Part shown: in pieces, positions 22,963 through 30,634 of the stretch
How positions within the stretch are numbered: the first letter of the stretch is position 1
Layout of the letters: each line of letters starts with the position of its first letter
Source of the DNA: a virus
Lineage: Duplodnaviria; Caudoviricetes
Reading direction: 5' to 3' (one strand)
IMG/VR virus record: IMGVR_UViG_3300032030_000062
Span: 1 to 64,000 of that record
Length of the DNA: 64,000 nucleotides
Program-made: the position numbers and the translations under genes
The notes under the pieces: generated by a model
Told to the model about the DNA's origin: nothing
The model's input: only the letters and a program-made list of their open reading frames with translations
Databases searched by the model: none

Positions 22963-25809
22963 ATGAAAAATTTATCGACTGATTTTAAACGTGCTTTAGC
23001 ACGAAATCATAGAAATTATCTCGCCTATGCGGACATAACATGGCCTCAGAATCAACAAGGTCAGCGTCAGACATTAGCATTAAATAATACTAATTTATGG
23101 GCAGGTGGGTTCTCATATGAGGAACTTGTATCAGAAGATGAAGAATTTACAGCATTAGGTTCTGTATATATGGGAACTGCCAAACTCATAATAAATAACA
23201 TAGATGAAAGTTATACGCCATATGTATTTGAAGATGCTGAAAGCATGGTACTTCAAATAGGAATGGAATTTCCTGATACTTCACAGCAATCAGGAAAAAG
23301 AATAGAGAAACATAAAATAGGAACATATCATGCGGCAGAAGTTAAATATGATGGAACAATAGTATCATTATCTTTGCAGGATAATATTGCAAAATTTGAT
23401 AAACCATATTCTGCAAGTAAATTAACTTATCCTGCTACTTTAATTGATATTGTAAATAATTGTTGTACCATTTGTAATGTTCAATTGGCGAACAATTCAT
23501 TACAATTTCCTCATTATAATTATGTGATTAAATCAAGACCAGATGATGATGCCATAACATGTAGGGATGTAATTAGTTGGGTAGCTACTATAGCAGGATG
23601 TTTTGTAAAGTGTAATCCAGACGGTCAGATAGAATTTAAGTGGTTTAATCAGCAAGCTATTGAACAGGAAATGACAATACTCGATGGCGGTACCGTAACT
23701 CCGTGGAGTACAGGTCAAAATGTAAACGGCGGTACAGTAACTCCTTGGAGTACTGGTGAAGTTATAAACGGTGGTACAGGAGAAGGTACATATAATTTTC
23801 ATACAATAACCAGTTTATATTCTCAAACTATTGCCCTCGATGATATAGTAATAACAGGACTAACAGTACAAATAGATAAAGATGTTAAATCATCTGAGGA
23901 AACTGAAGATTCTACTATATATTCTGTAGGAACTACTGGTTATATAATTTCGATCACGAATAATAAATTTTTTAATGCGGAAAATGCACAAGAAATATTA
24001 ACATGGCTTGGAAATCAGTTAATAGGATTTCGATTCAGAAAATTAAATATAACTATTCCTAATACTCCCGCCATTGAATCTGGTGATGTTATGCTTGTAT
24101 ATGACAGAAAAGGAAGAGGATATGCAAGCTTAGTAACAAGAACAAGTTTTTCAGTGGGAGGTACACAAGAGATAGTATCCGGTGGAAGCACACCAACGAG
24201 AAATAAAGCCACACAGTATTCCGCATATGCACGTAGTATAGTAGAAGCCAGAAGATTAGCACAGGCAAATAGAACAGCTTTTGATTCAGCTTTGGAAGAT
24301 TTGGGTCGGGCATTAGACGCAAAAACTGGATTATATCCCACTGAAAAAACGACAGAATCAGGCAGTATTTACTATCTACATGATAGACCTAAACTTGAAG
24401 ATTCTTCAACGGTAATACAAGTAACAAGTGAAGCTATAGGTATTACAACTAATTATAATAGAGGTGTTGATACTGAGTGGAATTGGGGCGTTACAGTAGA
24501 CGGTACAACTATAACAAAAATATTAGTTGCAATCGGAGTAAACGCTAATTGGATAAGATCGGGTAATATAAAGATTGTAAATACAGTAAGTGGACAAGAT
24601 GAAAAAGAAATTTTTTATGCAAGTATAGATTCCAAACTTGTTAGAATAGCAAAAGATGTAATAGTTGCTTCAAGTGATGGTATTGTCGTTATTCAAGCAA
24701 AAGATACAAATGGTAATGAAACATTTTATCTTAATTCTGGCACAGGTGTTGTTAGAATCAATGCGACAAGTTTTTCCTTAAGCGGTCGATCTGTAAATCA
24801 AATTGCATCTAATGCAGGTGCAACAGCAGGTGCGGATGCGGCGAATACAGCATTGGCTAATTATGATCCTGCCGATGAATTAACACAAGCTGAAATATTT
24901 AATCTATTAACTGGAGGAACGAAAACTACTCCGGGTTCTACACAAGGTATATGGTTAAACAATGGAAAAGTATATCTTAATTTTTCTTATGCGCGAGGTG
25001 GAGCATTAACACTTGGTGGAGCAAATAATGGAAATGGTACTTTTAATGTACTTAATGCGGACAACAATCAAATAATCGCAATCGATAATAACGGAACAAT
25101 TTTCAGAAGTACAACCGCTGACGAATACATTAAAATCAATGAAAACATAATTCAAGGATATGCAGGTACACCGGCACGTTTACATAGTTGGATTGATTTA
25201 TGTGCTGATTATGCTGGTACTGGTAGTTCAACCGTAAAATGGATGGTTTTTGAAACCTCGTCATACTCCAAAGGTATAAAGTTGATAGCGGGTGGAAACG
25301 GTTCTATTGAATTAGACGCTGGTTCAAGATCAGTTAAGTTTTTATCAAAAATTGATGCTGGACAAATAAATTCATCAACCTATATAGAAGCCGCAGATCA
25401 TTTTTATACACCTGGATATGTGGAAGCAAAAGATCATATCAATACTTCAGGCAATGTAGAATGCTATAGTTTAACTGTAAACGGAACACCTCCGTGGACA
25501 ACTTCATCCGATAGACGATTAAAGAAAAATATTGAAGATGCCGAAGAACAAACAGAAAATATCAAAAAGCTGAAAGTTCATCAATTCGATTGGAAAGATG
25601 ATAGTGGTCATGTTCCTGTCGGACTTGTCGCCCAGGAATTACAAGAAGTTTATCCAGAACTTGTTAAAGAATCAGATAACGGATTGAGAATTGATTATAT
25701 CAATATGGTTCCTTATCTAGTTAAAACAATTCAGGAACAGAATGATAGAATCAATTTATTGGAGCAGAAATTAAATATGCTTGAAAAGAAATTGGAGAAA
25801 CTTATATGA
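22963..25809 (+). CDS. tail tip/hub-spike protein with C-terminal intramolecular chaperone (Peptidase_S74-like)
   Basis: TSSDRRLKKNI...GLVAQELQEVYPELV...IDYINMVPYLVKTIQE followed by a coiled coil. Confidence 0.85.
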   Translation: MKNLSTDFKRALARNHRNYLAYADITWPQNQQGQRQTLALNNTNLWAGGFSYEELVSEDEEFTALGSVYMGTAKLIINNIDESYTPYVFEDAESMVLQIGMEFPDTSQQSGKRIEKHKIGTYHAAEVKYDGTIVSLSLQDNIAKFDKPYSASKLTYPATLIDIVNNCCTICNVQLANNSLQFPHYNYVIKSRPDDDAITCRDVISWVATIAGCFVKCNPDGQIEFKWFNQQAIEQEMTILDGGTVTPWSTGQNVNGGTVTPWSTGEVINGGTGEGTYNFHTITSLYSQTIALDDIVITGLTVQIDKDVKSSEETEDSTIYSVGTTGYIISITNNKFFNAENAQEILTWLGNQLIGFRFRKLNITIPNTPAIESGDVMLVYDRKGRGYASLVTRTSFSVGGTQEIVSGGSTPTRNKATQYSAYARSIVEARRLAQANRTAFDSALEDLGRALDAKTGLYPTEKTTESGSIYYLHDRPKLEDSSTVIQVTSEAIGITTNYNRGVDTEWNWGVTVDGTTITKILVAIGVNANWIRSGNIKIVNTVSGQDEKEIFYASIDSKLVRIAKDVIVASSDGIVVIQAKDTNGNETFYLNSGTGVVRINATSFSLSGRSVNQIASNAGATAGADAANTALANYDPADELTQAEIFNLLTGGTKTTPGSTQGIWLNNGKVYLNFSYARGGALTLGGANNGNGTFNVLNADNNQIIAIDNNGTIFRSTTADEYIKINENIIQGYAGTPARLHSWIDLCADYAGTGSSTVKWMVFETSSYSKGIKLIAGGNGSIELDAGSRSVKFLSKIDAGQINSSTYIEAADHFYTPGYVEAKDHINTSGNVECYSLTVNGTPPWTTSSDRRLKKNIEDAEEQTENIKKLKVHQFDWKDDSGHVPVGLVAQELQEVYPELVKESDNGLRIDYINMVPYLVKTIQEQNDRINLLEQKLNMLEKKLEKLI

Positions 25810-26282
25810 TAAGGTTAGAATTTGAGGTAAGCAATCAATTTATAAATAGGACAGATCAACAAAAGCCAGTTTCTGATAGTAAGAACTATTTATATTCCCA
25901 TTTCACTTTTTTAACAGAAGAGTGGCAGAATAAAACGGTCACTGCATTATTTACAAAAGGCGACAAATCGTTTATAATATTAGTAGATACAAATGGTGAT
26001 TGTCCTGTACCTTGGGAACTTATTCAGAATGGGGGCGATGTATATGTCTCAGTTTATAGCGGAGACTTATCTACCACGAATAACTCAAGAGTAACTATTT
26101 ATGAAAGTGGTTATATAGAAAATGCAGAAAATTCTCAACCACCTACTCCTAATATTTATGCCCAAATATTAGATGATGTAGATGGATTAAGAGGCGAGGT
26201 TGCAGAATTAAAAGATTTAATTGATGGCGGCGATGTATTGATAATAGACGGTGGCAATACAAGCGACTGGATAAAGGAGTGA
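25806..26282 (+). CDS. baseplate protein (BppU N-terminal-like)
   Basis: Position; CPVPWE and C-terminal PPTPNIYAQIL motifs. Confidence 0.55.
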   Translation: MIRLEFEVSNQFINRTDQQKPVSDSKNYLYSHFTFLTEEWQNKTVTALFTKGDKSFIILVDTNGDCPVPWELIQNGGDVYVSVYSGDLSTTNNSRVTIYESGYIENAENSQPPTPNIYAQILDDVDGLRGEVAELKDLIDGGDVLIIDGGNTSDWIKE

Positions 26283-26286
26283 TAAA

Positions 26287-27486
26287 TTGGATGCCATAAT
26301 TCAAAACAGGCGAGGTGACTATTCGGAAGTTATTCCCGAAAACTTACGACCTGGTGAATATGTTGTTGTACAACAGAATGATCCTAATTCAGATAGTGGT
26401 CAATCTGTTTATGTAGGAATTAAACAGGGTGTTGTAAAAAGACTTGCTTTTTCTAATGAAGTGGGTGATTATCAGATTCAAGCACAAGAAGCGGCAGAAC
26501 AAGCTAAGTCCGCTCAATCAGCAACAGCAACAATGGTTGGGCAAGTAAATACAAAGTATAATGAAATAAATACATTAGCTGGACAGGTAGCTACAAACGC
26601 ACAAACAGCACAAACAGCGGCACAAACAGCAACAACTAAAGCAAATGAAGCATCCCAATCAAAAACAGATGCCCAAACAGCTTCACAAACATCTGTTAAG
26701 GTATTAGGAAGTATGGCTCCTGCTTATGATGCAACAAAGACATATGCAGTAGGAGATTTAGTTATATATGATAATGCATTAAAACAATGTAACACAGCTA
26801 TAACTACTCCTGAAGCATGGAATGATGCTCATTGGATAAATGCTACTGTAGAAAACGAATTAACTAATTTAAAGGAAGATTTAAGTAATACAGACGCTTT
26901 GCAAAAATTGCTTTGTGATGATGTTCCGAATACCATTCAGACATACACGTTTACGGATGGAGCCGTATCGCAGGTAACTCACAGTGCAGACAATGTAGCG
27001 GTCAGAACGGATGTTTTTACTTATTCATCGTCATCAATAACAGAAACACGGACGCTAAACAGTGGCGAATCTCTCGCAATTGTGACAAACCTTACAACAC
27101 TGGAAACTACAGTGACTTACAACGAAGCCGAACCTTATGAAGTAGTGTATAGCGTTACGGATGCTGTTCAAGGTGCTTGGGTATATAGTAATGGCTCTTA
27201 TTCAAATAATGGTAGAACAGATAGGGCTGGTTCAAAGATGCTCGGATATACGCCGCAAATCGGTGACATTATCAGGGTTGAGGACTCACAAAGACGATAT
27301 AAATTTACCACTGGAACTGGCATAGATAACTACAGGATTACCAGCACAGATGATTTAGTTGTTGACCAGACAGCAATGGCTACATTGAAAACGATTTTGT
27401 TTGTAAAAGCCGATAACTCTGACTTTACAAGCAATGACCTTGCTTTTTTGAATCAAAATACTCATGTTTATAGACAATCGGTATAA
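26287..27486 (+). CDS. tail fibre/receptor-binding protein
   Basis: Ala/Gln-rich coiled coil; YDATKTYAVGDLVIY...WNDAHW carbohydrate-binding-like module; distinct C-terminal half after ELTNLKEDL. Confidence 0.65.
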   Translation: MDAIIQNRRGDYSEVIPENLRPGEYVVVQQNDPNSDSGQSVYVGIKQGVVKRLAFSNEVGDYQIQAQEAAEQAKSAQSATATMVGQVNTKYNEINTLAGQVATNAQTAQTAAQTATTKANEASQSKTDAQTASQTSVKVLGSMAPAYDATKTYAVGDLVIYDNALKQCNTAITTPEAWNDAHWINATVENELTNLKEDLSNTDALQKLLCDDVPNTIQTYTFTDGAVSQVTHSADNVAVRTDVFTYSSSSITETRTLNSGESLAIVTNLTTLETTVTYNEAEPYEVVYSVTDAVQGAWVYSNGSYSNNGRTDRAGSKMLGYTPQIGDIIRVEDSQRRYKFTTGTGIDNYRITSTDDLVVDQTAMATLKTILFVKADNSDFTSNDLAFLNQNTHVYRQSV

Positions 27487-27504
27487 CAGAAAGAAGGTGT
27501 AAGA

Positions 27505-28410
27505 ATGGCAGTTAGTATTTGGGAAGGAAGTAAGGCGCAGGAACTTATAGATGCAGTAAAAAAAATCTCATCCAGTAGTGGCTTGTCTAATGAGGTTAAA
27601 ATAGCATTATTGACTTGTTTTAGACACGTGGCATGGGACGATGATCAATATCAAGTGTATTATGATGCGTTAGAAAATGCATTAAACCGTACAGACCCAG
27701 ACCCAGGTTACCCTAAAATTATCGCAAGTTTTAATCAAGATTATCGAACAATTTATACTGACGATCCTATCAATTCATTAAAAAATAACATTATTGTTAA
27801 AAAATACGAGAATATAGATGACACAGATGGAACAATTATATCAGATTATACAATACTTGGTACATTAAAGGAAGGAAATAGTATAGTTAATATTTCGTCA
27901 GAAGGGCTTAATGCAAGTCTTACCATTCCGTGTGTTTTACCTAAATATACATATACTTTTACAGCTAACGATCTAATCCTTTATAAGGGTGGTGTCCAAA
28001 GTTGGGACCCGGATGGAAAAGTATATGTACCGTTTTTGGAGGCTAATAATACACGAAGAGGGTTCATTACTCCAAATGGGACTTATCCTTTAAGAATCAA
28101 ACCGGGAAATACAATAGTGGAAGGGCATTATCCAATTCATATACCATCTGACGCAACGTCTGTTACTATTTCTGTGTCGCCTAATACAATGCAAGTTGCT
28201 TGTAACGGTTGGGAAATGGATTTTTCAGAAAAACGTTATAGATATATTAGTGATAGTGATTCTGGTTTTTCAACCGGAGGAGTATCGAAAGCTATACCTT
28301 TATCAAATAAATATTCTGGCGTACGAGCGTTGGGCATTATTCTTAAATTTAATAGTTCCGGCTCTACATTCACAACGGAGCCGACTCAATGCACTGTTAC
28401 ATTTTCATGA
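27505..28410 (+). CDS. virion accessory protein with Ig-like domain
   Basis: ALLTCFRHVAW...YYDALENAL followed by beta-rich IIASFNQ...YTILGTLKEGNSIVNIS. Confidence 0.55.
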   Translation: MAVSIWEGSKAQELIDAVKKISSSSGLSNEVKIALLTCFRHVAWDDDQYQVYYDALENALNRTDPDPGYPKIIASFNQDYRTIYTDDPINSLKNNIIVKKYENIDDTDGTIISDYTILGTLKEGNSIVNISSEGLNASLTIPCVLPKYTYTFTANDLILYKGGVQSWDPDGKVYVPFLEANNTRRGFITPNGTYPLRIKPGNTIVEGHYPIHIPSDATSVTISVSPNTMQVACNGWEMDFSEKRYRYISDSDSGFSTGGVSKAIPLSNKYSGVRALGIILKFNSSGSTFTTEPTQCTVTFS

Positions 28411-28436
28411 ATATTATTTATGGATGGTGATATAAA

Positions 28437-29252
28437 ATGGCAATATATAGTCTTAGTAAGGGCAGACTTTACGATGAATCAGAAAGTGATAGTTTTTTTA
28501 AAAATGTGCTAATTACTCGTGGGCGAGTACATAATGCAAATTATTATATTTTACATATAAATAAACAACGAAATGATGGTAAATTTCAATATCCATTCGT
28601 ATATTGTCCTAATGGAAGCAGTGCAAGAAATCAGTCAGCCTTGTCAATGAACATACAAAAAGGATATTATATTGCAATAAATGCCGGTATATTTGACGTT
28701 GATGGTCAATATGACAAAACTGATGGGCAAAGAAGAAACGCTCCTCTTGGAATAACCATACAAAATTCTACAGTTATTACAGGAAGTGACGGATACTATC
28801 ATGATGCACTAACCATAAATCAAAACGGAGATCTGAGTCACACACCTCGTGGTATAGACACAGATGCACAAAGTTTAATAACGAATGGCATTGTATCGGC
28901 TGTGACTGGGTTTGGAGCATTTATTGAAAATTATGAGGTCAATGATTCAGCACAAGGAATTATTGGTAGTTATGATGCGCAAAGACAGATAATAGGACAA
29001 TATGGAAATGGAGATTACGCCATTATAACCATAGAAGGCCGTTCGTTTGATAATTCAACGGGTTTATCAGTTGCCAACATAACTGACTTTTGTGTGAATT
29101 TGGGATTAAAGTTCGCGTATTTACTTGACGGTGGCGGAAGTACCGAAACGGTTATAGGCAGAAAACAATTAAATACCATATACGAAGGTACGCAAGGTAG
29201 GTTAGTGCCTACATTTATAGTATTTAATGGCATGAATGTTTTTACCGCATAA
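28437..29252 (+). CDS. phosphodiester glycosidase (NAGPA-family) protein
   Basis: AINAGIF, RQIIG...IITIEGR, AYLLDGGGST motifs. Confidence 0.85.
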   Translation: MAIYSLSKGRLYDESESDSFFKNVLITRGRVHNANYYILHINKQRNDGKFQYPFVYCPNGSSARNQSALSMNIQKGYYIAINAGIFDVDGQYDKTDGQRRNAPLGITIQNSTVITGSDGYYHDALTINQNGDLSHTPRGIDTDAQSLITNGIVSAVTGFGAFIENYEVNDSAQGIIGSYDAQRQIIGQYGNGDYAIITIEGRSFDNSTGLSVANITDFCVNLGLKFAYLLDGGGSTETVIGRKQLNTIYEGTQGRLVPTFIVFNGMNVFTA

Positions 29253-29326
29253 TTGAGGATATTGAATTAACTTAAAGCAGGCTTTTAAACACATAAAAAA
29301 TACTGTTTTGGCAAAGGATAATAACA

Positions 29327-29584
29327 ATGCTGTTTAATGATATTAACATTGGTGACGTATTTGTAAAAATACATGGATCAAAAGCGCACTACCTTTGCGT
29401 TGGTAAAAGTATAAATATAGAAGAAGGTCAAGTGATAAATATTGTACATTTATTAAATATCAAGTATCCGCAGTTACCGAAAGCTATACGTTTTGAAGAT
29501 TTTAAAGAATTTACTAAAGCTGGTCATGAGGATTTAAGCGGAATCAAACAGATTTTAGATGTAATTAAAGAGAAGTATGTTTAA
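29327..29584 (+). CDS. hypothetical protein (cassette 1)
   Basis: AAGGA RBS; the stop abuts a repeat. Confidence 0.65.
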   Translation: MLFNDINIGDVFVKIHGSKAHYLCVGKSINIEEGQVINIVHLLNIKYPQLPKAIRFEDFKEFTKAGHEDLSGIKQILDVIKEKYV

Positions 29585-29620
29585 TAACTAACTTAAAGCA
29601 GGCAGTATGGAGATTATTAC

Positions 29621-29743
29621 ATGATAATTCTTATAGCGGTATTAACATTACTCGGCATAATAAGTTCGATTTATGAAATCCGAAACGAAACCGAGGATGA
29701 TAAAAAGAAAAAGAAATGGCTGTTTGAACACGGTCTTTACTAA
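29621..29743 (+). CDS. 40-aa membrane peptide (cassette 2, not in ORF track)
   Basis: GGAG RBS; MIILIAVLTLLGIISSIYEIR...; the TAA stop lies inside the repeat. Confidence 0.5.
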   Translation: MIILIAVLTLLGIISSIYEIRNETEDDKKKKKWLFEHGLY

Positions 29744-29774
29744 CTTAAAGCAGACGGTATAAAGGATAATACAA

Positions 29775-29858
29775 ATGGTATATTTAATAGGTGGTTTAGT
29801 TATAGGTTTTGCAGGCGGGATGATGTTTGCAACTATGATATTCGATAAGGAGAGATGA
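29775..29858 (+). CDS. 27-aa hydrophobic peptide (cassette 3, not in ORF track)
   Basis: AAGGA RBS; MVYLIGGLVIGFAGGMMFATMIFDKER; ATGA overlap with the next gene. Confidence 0.45.
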   Translation: MVYLIGGLVIGFAGGMMFATMIFDKER

Positions 29859-30115
29859 ATATGACATTTGGAGAAGCACTTGAAAAAGTAAAAGAAGGTA
29901 AACGTATTTCAAGAAAAGGATGGAATGGTAAAGAACAATATGTAGAACTTGCTACCCATGTTTCGTATCAAAACTCTAAAGGTGAAATTATAAATCCACA
30001 ACACGATGCATTTGCAGGAAGTATTGCCCTTGCTTTTGTAGGTACTTCTGGAATACAGATTGGATGGCTTGCTTCACAAGCAGATATGTTAGCTAACGAC
30101 TGGGAGGTTAAATAA
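29855..30115 (+). CDS. DUF2829/Thoeris anti-defence Tad2-like family protein
   Basis: MTFGEALE..K.GKRISRKGWNGK...GWLASQADMLANDW is the DUF2829 signature. Confidence 0.8.
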   Translation: MNMTFGEALEKVKEGKRISRKGWNGKEQYVELATHVSYQNSKGEIINPQHDAFAGSIALAFVGTSGIQIGWLASQADMLANDWEVK

Positions 30116-30387
30116 TGAACTATACACTGGTTATATCGGTATGTTCTTTACTCTTAGCCGGGTATACTTTTCTCAGTAAGAATAATAAGGAAAATACAAC
30201 AGAACTAACAACCGTCATTGTGAAGTTGGAAAATATAGGTAATGGAATAAGGGACATTAAGACTGAATTAGCTACATTAAAGAATGATCAGAAAGAAGAT
30301 CATGATAAGATTATAAAGTTGGAAGCTTCTATAGCAACTGCCTGGAAACGCATTGATGAGATAAAGAAGGAAGATGCAAATTTATGA
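30115..30387 (+). CDS. N-terminal TM plus coiled-coil protein (holin/XhlA-like)
   Basis: Hydrophobic N-terminus; IIKLEASIATAWKRIDE. Confidence 0.5.
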   Translation: MNYTLVISVCSLLLAGYTFLSKNNKENTTELTTVIVKLENIGNGIRDIKTELATLKNDQKEDHDKIIKLEASIATAWKRIDEIKKEDANL

Positions 30388-30583
30388 TTTTACAGTTCCA
30401 GAATTAAATAAGTTTAGGGAATTATGTAACTTTGATGAACAGGAATTAACTTATTTTAATTTCCGCGCCCGTCATAAATCAAATACATTTATCTCTATGG
30501 AGATGCATGTATCAGAAGCACAAGTATCAAAGTTGGCAAAACGTGTAAAGAGTAAGATTTTAAGAGTAACTCCTTATTTATAA
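30374..30583 (+). CDS. small HTH regulator (LuxR/sigma region 4-like)
   Basis: SNTFISMEMHVSEAQVSKLAKRVKSKI HTH pattern. Confidence 0.6.
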   Translation: MQIYDFTVPELNKFRELCNFDEQELTYFNFRARHKSNTFISMEMHVSEAQVSKLAKRVKSKILRVTPYL

Positions 30584-30601: not shown

Positions 30602-30634
30602 AAGAGTACCGTATAAGTGCGGTACTCTTTTTTT
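30602..30634 (+). terminator. Rho-independent terminator
   Basis: AAGAGTACCG/CGGTACTCTT stem followed by a T-run. Confidence 0.85.

Follow-up and report, generated by a model that had tools for sequence, protein, structure and literature searches.

We found that a complete 73-kb phage genome, which has no tyrosine or serine recombinase of its own, carries four copies of a short DNA site that in many related phages sits beside a dedicated recombinase. Comparison with these relatives suggests that the site marks where tail-fibre tips and small extra genes are exchanged. The sites in this phage are thus orphans: either substrates for a recombinase supplied in trans, or scars. The first-pass annotation of the window (the 64,000-nucleotide stretch that was analyzed, from IMG/VR record IMGVR_UViG_3300032030_000062) had noted TAAYTTAAAG motifs bracketing the receptor-binding module and delimiting mini-gene cassettes, and had inferred an integron- or shufflon-like system of cassette exchange. 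Our analysis confirms the motifs and, by comparison only, largely bears out this reading; however, the terms integron and shufflon hold only in the sense of "works like", as defining features of both were tested and did not apply.

Architecture of the sites and the genes around them

The motif TAAYTTAAAG occurs four times in the window, always on the + strand, at 26865, 29268, 29589 and 29741. We term the corresponding sites F, A, B and C. The features of this region are:

22963-25809, + strand: tail protein (948 aa) with a C-terminal S74 intramolecular-chaperone domain; upstream backbone, not part of the cassette
26287-27486, + strand: tail-fibre gene (399 aa), with an N-terminal anchor, a coiled coil, a CBM5/12-like domain, a neck and an exchangeable C-terminal part
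26863-26890, + strand: site F, in the fibre neck, with spacer GGAAGA and an 11-6-11 layout, read in frame as TNLKEDLSN
26880-29276, + strand: receptor-binding cassette between F and A, comprising the fibre C-terminal half, a 301-aa protein (27505-28410) and a NAGPA phosphodiester glycosidase (28437-29252)
29266-29293, + strand: site A, after the NAGPA gene, with spacer GCAGGC and a weakened right arm
29327-29584, + strand: mini-cassette 1, an 85-aa gene of unknown function
29587-29614, + strand: site B, a half site with left arm and spacer GCAGGC but no right arm
29621-29743, + strand: mini-cassette 2, a 40-aa single-pass membrane peptide
29739-29766, + strand: site C, a half site with left arm and spacer GCAGAC but no right arm
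29775-29858, + strand: 27-aa membrane peptide gene
29855-30115, + strand: Tad2-like (Thoeris anti-defence 2-like) gene, the first gene after the site array

The tail protein was identified by matches to a PHROG tail-protein family (3.5e-127) and to Pfam Peptidase_S74 (2e-15), and the Tad2-like gene by Pfam PF11195 (5.9e-22), whereas the 85-aa gene had no family match. The fibre protein is a mosaic with a joint at about residue 188-193, as its homologues match either residues 5-60, 140-200, 186-281 or 188-397. Site F encodes TNLKEDL at residues 193-199, just after the CBM_5_12 match at residues 146-179. The stop codon of the 40-aa gene (29741-29743) is the TAA inside site C, and the 85-aa gene stops at 29582-29584, directly before site B. 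Sites F and A have the TTAAA-N6-TT(T)TAA dyad, and a shared leader AAAGGATAATA lies at 29313 and 29761. Sites B and C share 35 nt at 80% identity.

The longer core CTAACTTAAAGCAG, allowing up to one mismatch, occurs exactly three times in the whole 73,038-bp genome (29267, 29588 and 29740) and never on the other strand. The simple count of the 10-mer is only weakly significant (four observed against 1.2 expected, with 4 of 100 shuffles reaching four). To obtain a statistic independent of the window, we trained a scoring matrix only on 22 recombinase-adjacent sites of other phages. This matrix ranks F (23.7) and A (20.5) as the two best full sites in the whole genome, within the training range of 18.7-36.6, while the best of 30 shuffled genomes reaches 17.6. 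The left-arm-plus-spacer half of the matrix ranks C (20.6) and B (20.5) as the two best half sites. Of the arm positions in F, 7 of 11 are symmetric; half sites also occur next to recombinase genes elsewhere (e.g., in locus L291; loci are numbered with the prefix L throughout).

The site is associated with a family of Xer-like recombinases in related phages

A 22-nt version of the motif was found in 6 distinct IMG/VR contigs, and about 8 of 14 metagenome hits were of the gene-end type. In contrast, 185,579 species genomes yielded only one hit, inside an ORF, which rules against a host repeat element or uptake sequence. Unrelated upstream genes, namely those for GH16, NAGPA, CotH, GDSL and GDPD, stop in or at the motif. 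In L240 and L242, the next gene codes for a tyrosine recombinase (PF00589, 1e-36), the two being 57% identical. This family has 1661 proteins at E<=1e-40, and its best solved relatives are XerC-like, XerA and XerD. A first integrase profile scan recovered only the query's own contig, and the scan was repeated with a 39-sequence alignment. The gene always lies between the tail genes and holin-endolysin, and a separate integrase is present in three of the four loci looked up through it (L268-L270). L267 has the same layout at the tail protein, and has NAGPA in the same slot followed by the site and the recombinase.

In these relatives the 28-bp site, consisting of 11-bp inverted arms around a 6-bp spacer, lies about 200 bp upstream of the recombinase gene (at -179 to -278 in at least 22 loci), and in L305 and L316 it forms perfect palindromes that co-vary between the two arms. 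A second, direct copy lies in the fibre neck 1-2.6 kb upstream of the recombinase in about 15 recombinase loci. Neck Leu codons are TTA in 9 of 9 cases, against 19% in the same ORFs, and include the only TTA among 33 Leu codons in a 66% GC ORF. The neck and recombinase-proximal spacers differ in 7 of 7 genomes that have both, as they do in the window, where F and A lie 2403 bp apart against 1.0-2.4 kb in relatives.

The window's phage has the same two-site layout, but lacks the recombinase: no PF00589 or PF00239 match and no tblastn match better than E=1 was found in the complete genome, and small genes and the Tad2-like gene occupy the place about 200 bp downstream of the distal site. The distant cultured homologues in phiCp-D and TPELB_ph1 have the same gene position but no site of this type upstream.

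Homology breakpoints coincide with the sites

The synteny breakpoints in relatives coincide with the motif at nucleotide resolution. L269 and L274 are 98.7% identical up to the neck site, unrelated for 1.85 kb, and then 94.9% identical from the spacer of the second site onward. There are 0.43 alignment ends per site against 0.067 per ordinary gene end (odds ratio 10.5, p=3e-10). For the window itself, blastn similarity to L099/L100 starts at 26864, in site F. Homologues of the 85-aa gene with 85% identity are found in L351/L352, behind a pectate-lyase-like tail gene and before a holin, and the shared 335-nt block runs from 29268, in site A, to 29602, inside the spacer of site B. Similarity to L353 ends at 29586, one base before site B; there the 85-aa gene is followed directly by the Tad2-like gene, and the block formed by B, the 40-aa gene and the 27-aa gene is absent. 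The last ~20 nt of the 40-aa gene plus the left arm and spacer of C are 94% identical over 36 nt to L242, where a recombinase gene follows, and this identity stops at 29755, the last base of the spacer.

Taken together, we consider it likely that the four motifs are core-type sites of a large family of Xer-like, armless tyrosine recombinases encoded by many Clostridia-type and rumen or gut siphophages. In those phages, the DNA between the two sites, i.e., the fibre tip plus accessory surface-acting enzymes, behaves as a replaceable cassette, and extra small genes can sit between further sites. In the window, F and A bracket the fibre tip, the 301-aa protein and NAGPA, whereas A, B and C bracket two mini-genes. 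That the joints were made by site-specific strand exchange in the spacer is an inference from comparative joints, as is the proposal that the unlike spacers of F and A prevent self-deletion and favor a double exchange with another phage or prophage. In this phage, the enzyme would have to come in trans from a co-resident relative, unless the sites are scars of past events. Certain observations temper this interpretation. Sites B and C lack a right arm, and that of A is weak. Three independent assemblies of this phage, which are consensus assemblies without read-level evidence, show a single gene order. The similarity to L099/L100 ends at 27557, inside the next gene and not at a site; therefore, ordinary homologous recombination also reshapes this region. 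Moreover, the neck joint is also a protein-domain boundary, which alone would favor joints there, and sharp joints at a conserved site could also be inherited and spread by homologous recombination in the flanks.

Alternative accounts of the motifs

A less likely possibility is that the motifs are conserved module-junction ("linker") sequences, with cassettes being swapped by general homologous recombination that uses the conserved fibre neck and intergenic sequence as short homologies. Under this scenario, the neighboring recombinase of relatives would do something else, such as dimer resolution or secondary integration, and the sites in this phage would be passive relics. The absence of a recombinase here, the break at 27557, the stable gene order, and the lack of an adjacent recombinase in about 12 of 15 distinct motif-bearing contexts are compatible with it. 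However, it does not explain the 11-6-11 palindrome with co-varying arms at a fixed distance from the recombinase gene, the nucleotide-level TTA constraint in GC-rich fibre genes, the unlike spacers of the two sites, or why the intergenic joints fall within a few bases of the spacer, where no coding constraint acts.

It is improbable that the motif is instead a regulatory signal at the end of the late operon (an operator, or an mRNA 3'-end, processing, promoter or terminator element) repeated here by local duplication of a leader segment. In its favor, the motif lies between the stop codon of the last tail gene and, in several relatives, an intrinsic terminator; B and C share their 35 nt including the ribosome-binding site; and other phage records searched have a single copy. 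However, no sigma-70-like promoter or terminator pattern coincides with A, B or C, the first strong terminator being at 30602, and nothing relevant was found in Rfam for 28800-30400. The stem is only 6-7 A/T-rich pairs and is lacking in B and C, and a regulatory role does not explain an in-frame copy in the fibre neck or homology breaks at the sites.

Chance resemblance in an AT-rich genome is very unlikely: although the 10-mer count is marginal and a collection scan with the 14-mer core gave 93 stretches that were nearly all single, chance-like hits (only L025 proved related), the independent matrix scores of F and A exceed the best shuffle, a consensus derived from other contigs finds three of the four sites (F, A and B) with 0 matches in 100 shuffles, and position and orientation match the architecture of relatives.

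An attP of a canonical integrase was also rejected. The phage has terminal repeats and no integrase, and in relatives the site stays intact inside contigs that also hold a separate integrase beside the repressor. A scan with the 17-nt dyad mostly gave coding LKQAFK/LKADFK sequences, GenBank phages yielded only an 81-nt hit in the Tad2-like gene, and the 948-aa tail protein recovered no relatives in IMG/VR.

Comparison with known recombination systems

Host range is the main barrier to phage spread and to phage use. Mosaic tail fibres are usually attributed to accidental homologous recombination. A dedicated enzyme-and-site system that swaps whole receptor-binding cassettes between phages would be a programmed route to host-range change, far more widespread than the few known inversion switches. 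It would also explain why unrelated surface-acting enzymes all end at the same 22-28 bases, and the sites and enzymes could serve as natural tools for retargeting phages. Literature searches recovered only unrelated primers for the motif and no description of direct-site fibre cassette exchange. We tentatively speculate that phages of rumen and gut Clostridia share a natural recombinase-mediated cassette-exchange system for host range, in which two sites with unlike spacers make the fibre tip and its enzymes a plug-in unit and further sites collect small accessory genes. Virulent phages such as this one would keep only the sites and exploit recombinases expressed by resident prophages or co-infecting relatives to capture receptor-binding cassettes already adapted to the local host. 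The arrangement would then parallel engineered cassette exchange with heterospecific lox or FRT sites, in which sites with the same arms but different spacers generally do not recombine with each other but can each pair with their like on another molecule.

The closest known system is the Rin shufflon of Bifidobacterium prophages (Mavrich et al. 2018, PMC6109161). There too, an armless XerD-like tyrosine recombinase, separate from the phage's integrase, is encoded at the end of the receptor-binding-protein locus; one short site lies inside the gene at the junction of constant and variable parts, and a second, direct site follows the 3' end, the variable part being the receptor-binding C-terminus. 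However, Rin works by inversion among stored alternative C-termini flanked by inverted 11-bp asymmetric sites. In the system described here, all sites are direct, the full sites in relatives are 28-bp palindromes of a different sequence, and the cassette also carries whole accessory enzyme genes. In this phage, the recombinase is lacking, and there are no site-model hits elsewhere in the genome and no alternative fibre tips. Variant arrangements, as seen among copies of a shufflon, were not observed in the three consensus assemblies.

As in integrons, small genes are each followed by a site that overlaps or abuts the stop codon, the same cassette (e.g., that of the 85-aa gene) occurs in different contexts bounded by the sites, and in relatives the array lies next to a tyrosine recombinase gene. 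In contrast, there is no IntI-type integrase, and IntI4 is only a weak partial match to the relatives' enzyme. The sites are 28-bp double-strand palindromes, or 17-bp half sites, rather than 57-141-nt folded single-strand attC sites; the recombinase points the same way as the cassettes; the mini-genes carry their own ribosome-binding sites; and the array is only 2-3 units long.

The family shares with Xer/dif-type systems (XerC/D, XerA, XerH) the 11-bp arms around a 6-bp spacer and a recombinase with core-binding and catalytic domains only. It differs in having two sites with unlike spacers per genome, one of them inside a coding sequence, in a phage-borne gene in the late region, and in an apparent outcome of cassette replacement rather than dimer resolution. 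In tyrovirus gp50 of Bacillus phages (PMC9703825), no second site in a fibre gene and no cassette replacement were reported, and the gene lies between the neck protein and the tape measure. Nevertheless, it is a tyrosine recombinase of unknown function inside the structural gene block, with an adjacent site of two 11-bp inverted repeats around a 6-bp core, and the authors note the same placement in Psychrobacillus phage Perkons and Lactococcus 949-type phages. Finally, the fibre switches Gin of Mu, Cin of P1 and Min of p15B use serine recombinases, inverted sites and inversion of resident alternatives rather than exchange, but likewise change host range by site-specific recombination at the junction of constant and variable parts of a tail-fibre gene.

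Genomic context of the sites

The 73,038-bp IMG/VR virus record from which the window is taken has 51-bp direct terminal repeats and a G+C content of 34.6%, and is rated 100% complete. Nearly all of its long ORFs are on the + strand. The genes around the region of interest are as follows:

22963-25809: tail protein with a C-terminal S74 chaperone domain
25806-26282: 158-aa protein
26287-27486: 399-aa tail fibre with a CBM5/12-like stretch at residues 146-179
27505-28410: 301-aa protein with no family match
28437-29252: NAGPA phosphodiester glycosidase
29327-29584: 85-aa gene
29621-29743: 40-aa gene encoding a single-pass membrane peptide
29775-29858: 27-aa gene encoding a single-pass membrane peptide
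29855-30115: Tad2-like (Thoeris anti-defence 2-like) gene (Pfam 5.9e-22)

The first-pass annotation had noted four copies of the 10-mer TAAYTTAAAG, one inside the tail-fibre gene and three after the NAGPA gene, and these are confirmed, all on the + strand. They belong to sites F (starting at 26863, in the fibre gene), A (29266), B (29587) and C (29739). As a bare count this is only marginal, with 1.2 copies expected and 4 of 100 shuffled sequences reaching 4; however, the longer core is strict, with three copies in the whole genome and none reversed. The stop codon of the 40-aa gene lies inside site C, whereas site B starts right after the double stop of the 85-aa gene. Sites B and C share 35 nt at 80% identity, running into the ribosome-binding site. 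The 40- and 27-aa membrane peptides have 80%-similar leaders, and could possibly be holin-like, type I toxin-like or exclusion peptides. The Tad2-like gene directly follows the site array, and the first strong intrinsic terminator after the tail module, with 12 pairs followed by a T run, lies at 30602-30629; hence, the cassette array and the Tad2-like gene probably belong to the late transcript.

A mosaic tail fibre and recurrence of the motif at gene ends

Homologues of the fibre match separate pieces of it, namely residues 5-60, about 140-200, 186-281 or 188-397, indicating that the protein is a mosaic with a joint at the motif. Three metagenomic relatives (L097-L100) are 75-78% identical in DNA from window positions 26855-26864 to 27557 and are unrelated before that point. 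The left edge of this block is therefore the site noted in the fibre gene by the first-pass annotation. In contrast, the right edge is not a site and lies about 50 nt into the next gene, which encodes the 301-aa protein. The first 60-100 residues of this protein are conserved in many loci while the rest varies (window 27505-27700); this is a second modular joint, without a site, presumably an anchor domain used by homologous exchange.

The motif also recurs elsewhere at gene ends. In L097 and L099 the last tail gene (GH16) stops in a near-copy of the motif, and L100 is identical to L099 up to the motif but differs from there on. A 22-nt degenerate pattern built from these instances hits 6 distinct IMG/VR contigs and 14 metagenome contigs, about 8 of them of the gene-end type; in one genome each of 185,579 species it hits only one place, inside an ORF. 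The genes upstream of the motif are unrelated to one another, and include GH16, NAGPA, CotH-like proteins, GDSL esterases, GDPD phosphodiesterases and unknowns, with their stop codons placed in or at the motif in different registers. An intrinsic terminator often follows within 10-40 nt.

A late-region tyrosine recombinase and its associated site

In L240 and L242, two of the motif-bearing contigs, the next gene after the motif codes for a 331-339-aa tyrosine recombinase (PF00589 at 1e-36) with a SAM-like core-binding domain and no arm-binding domain; the two proteins are 57% identical. The family is very large, with 1661 proteins recovered at E<=1e-40, and its best solved relatives are XerC-like, XerA and XerD. 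In every context that we retrieved, the gene lies on the late strand between the last tail-fibre or accessory gene and holin-endolysin. In the recombinase locus L267 that last gene codes for a NAGPA protein 51% identical to that of the window. Three of the four loci retrieved through this family (L268-L270) also hold a separate, larger integrase beside the repressor. The cultured Clostridia phages phiCp-D (Clostridium) and TPELB_ph1 (Terrisporobacter) have distant homologues of 28-30% identity in the same position, between the last tail gene and the holin, annotated simply as integrase, although no site of this type was found upstream of them. Of these, phiCp-D also has ParM and TPELB_ph1 has a second, larger integrase.

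To characterize the site, we examined 80 IMG/VR loci with this recombinase and found a 28-bp element 179-278 bp upstream of the start codon in at least 22 distinct loci. It has 11-bp arms (left arm roughly ACTGAYTTAAA) around a 6-bp spacer. In two of these loci, L305 and L316, the elements are perfect palindromes that differ from each other at arm position 6 on both arms; the symmetry is therefore selected. We then trained a position weight matrix on these 22 sites only and scanned the whole genome of the window's phage with it. The two best full-site scores are at 26863 (23.7) and 29266 (20.5), whereas the two best scores for the left arm plus spacer are at 29739 (20.6) and 29587 (20.5). The best full-site score in 30 shuffled genomes is 17.6; for half sites, one shuffle reaches 22.6 and the next best is 17.7. 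The four sites of the first-pass annotation are therefore members of this site family, including the one inside the fibre gene.

The two-site layout

In about 15 recombinase loci a second site lies in direct orientation 1.0-2.6 kb upstream, inside a fibre gene, where it is read in frame as x-D/E/N-L-K-x-x-L. As codon counts on sites chosen by the matrix would be biased, we selected fibre necks by protein pattern alone. In 11 distinct fibres thus obtained, the first Leu is encoded by TTA in 9 of 9 cases and the second in 5 of 6, while TTA makes up 19% of the Leu codons in the same ORFs. One case is a 66% G+C ORF whose only TTA among 33 Leu codons is that of the neck. The neck is thus constrained at the DNA level. 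In all seven genomes with both sites, and in the window, the neck spacer differs from the distal spacer.

Homology breakpoints coincide with the sites

To assess whether homology breaks fall at the sites, we ran an all-against-all comparison of 120 loci (at least 85% identity over at least 150 nt). Of 338 unique internal alignment ends, 18 lie within 20 nt of a site centre, against 0.26% expected for uniform placement. Against a fairer control, there are 0.43 ends per site and 0.067 per ordinary gene end (odds ratio 10.5, p=3e-10). The clearest pair is formed by the recombinase loci L269 and L274, which are 98.7% identical over 4331 nt up to the neck site, with identity running through the left arm, the spacer and three more bases. 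They are then unrelated for 1.85 kb, and are 94.9% identical again from the last three spacer bases of the distal site through the recombinase. L267 and L271 show the same left joint.

Breakpoints are also seen in the window itself. A 335-nt block (29268-29602, 86% identical) holding the 85-aa gene recurs in the loci L351/L352, where it sits behind a pectate-lyase-like tail gene and in front of a holin; it starts in the left arm of A and ends in the spacer of B. In a further locus, L353, the 85-aa gene is followed directly by the Tad2-like gene; thus, the block from B to the 27-aa gene is an indel whose left edge is the first base of B. Identity with L242 covers the end of the 40-aa gene and the left arm and spacer of C, and stops at the last spacer base, 29755. 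Mini-gene arrays between sites also occur next to recombinase genes: a 60-aa Cys/His-rich ORF in L269/L270 (L269:6640-6810 and L270:2525-2707) and a 73-aa ORF in L291, about 450-180 nt upstream of the recombinase.

Absence of a recombinase and a proposed mechanism

The complete genome of the window's phage has no PF00589 and no PF00239 match, and no tblastn match to the recombinase family better than E=1. The same phage, with the same gene order, appears in two other public assemblies, a 72,371-bp ENA contig and a 9,034-bp Logan contig. Such orphan sites are common: about 12 of 15 distinct motif-bearing contexts show no adjacent recombinase, one of these being a 57.7-kb record rated complete that has no PF00589 at all.

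The first-pass annotation had inferred an integron/shufflon-like site-specific exchange system that swaps host-range modules and collects small genes, and had proposed breakpoints in related genomes as one test of it. The inference is supported by this test, although the support remains comparative. While the membership of the sites in the family, the two-site architecture and the joints at the sites are shown by comparison, we infer that a Xer-like enzyme binds the arms and exchanges strands across the spacer. Because the F-type and A-type spacers differ, under this proposal the two sites of one genome do not delete the cassette; instead, each can pair with its like on another phage or prophage, so that a double exchange replaces the fibre tip and its enzymes. 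Single insertions at the distal site would add small cassettes and leave hybrid sites that keep the left arm and spacer, which is what B and C look like. For this phage, either the enzyme would have to come in trans or the array is a record of past events in recombinase-bearing ancestors. The particular interest of this window lies in the orphan state of the sites in a virulent phage and in the clean evidence that a mini-gene travels between the sites.

The nearest described system is the Rin shufflon (PMC6109161), which has the same kind of enzyme, the same placement, one site in the gene and one direct site after it; however, it inverts stored alternatives, which are absent here. Tyrovirus gp50 shows that 11-6-11 sites next to structural-module tyrosine recombinases have been seen before, with their function left open (PMC9703825). 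Neither integron nor shufflon membership holds for the present sites, and we found no paper describing direct-site fibre cassette exchange.

A conserved leader upstream of the recombinase

The recombinase has a conserved leader after an extended -10 promoter, seen at L267:6891-7000 and in the equivalent stretch upstream of the recombinase in 25 other loci (e.g., L240:1447-1534 and L269:6889-7000). It has two hairpins with compensatory changes (7 of 16 pairs) and a CCTCC stretch facing the ribosome-binding site. Rfam gives only a weak countertranscript-like hit (E=0.9), on the opposite strand. The first hairpin is preceded by a run of A, so that on this opposite strand it reads as an intrinsic terminator. 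This suggests antisense or leader control of the recombinase.
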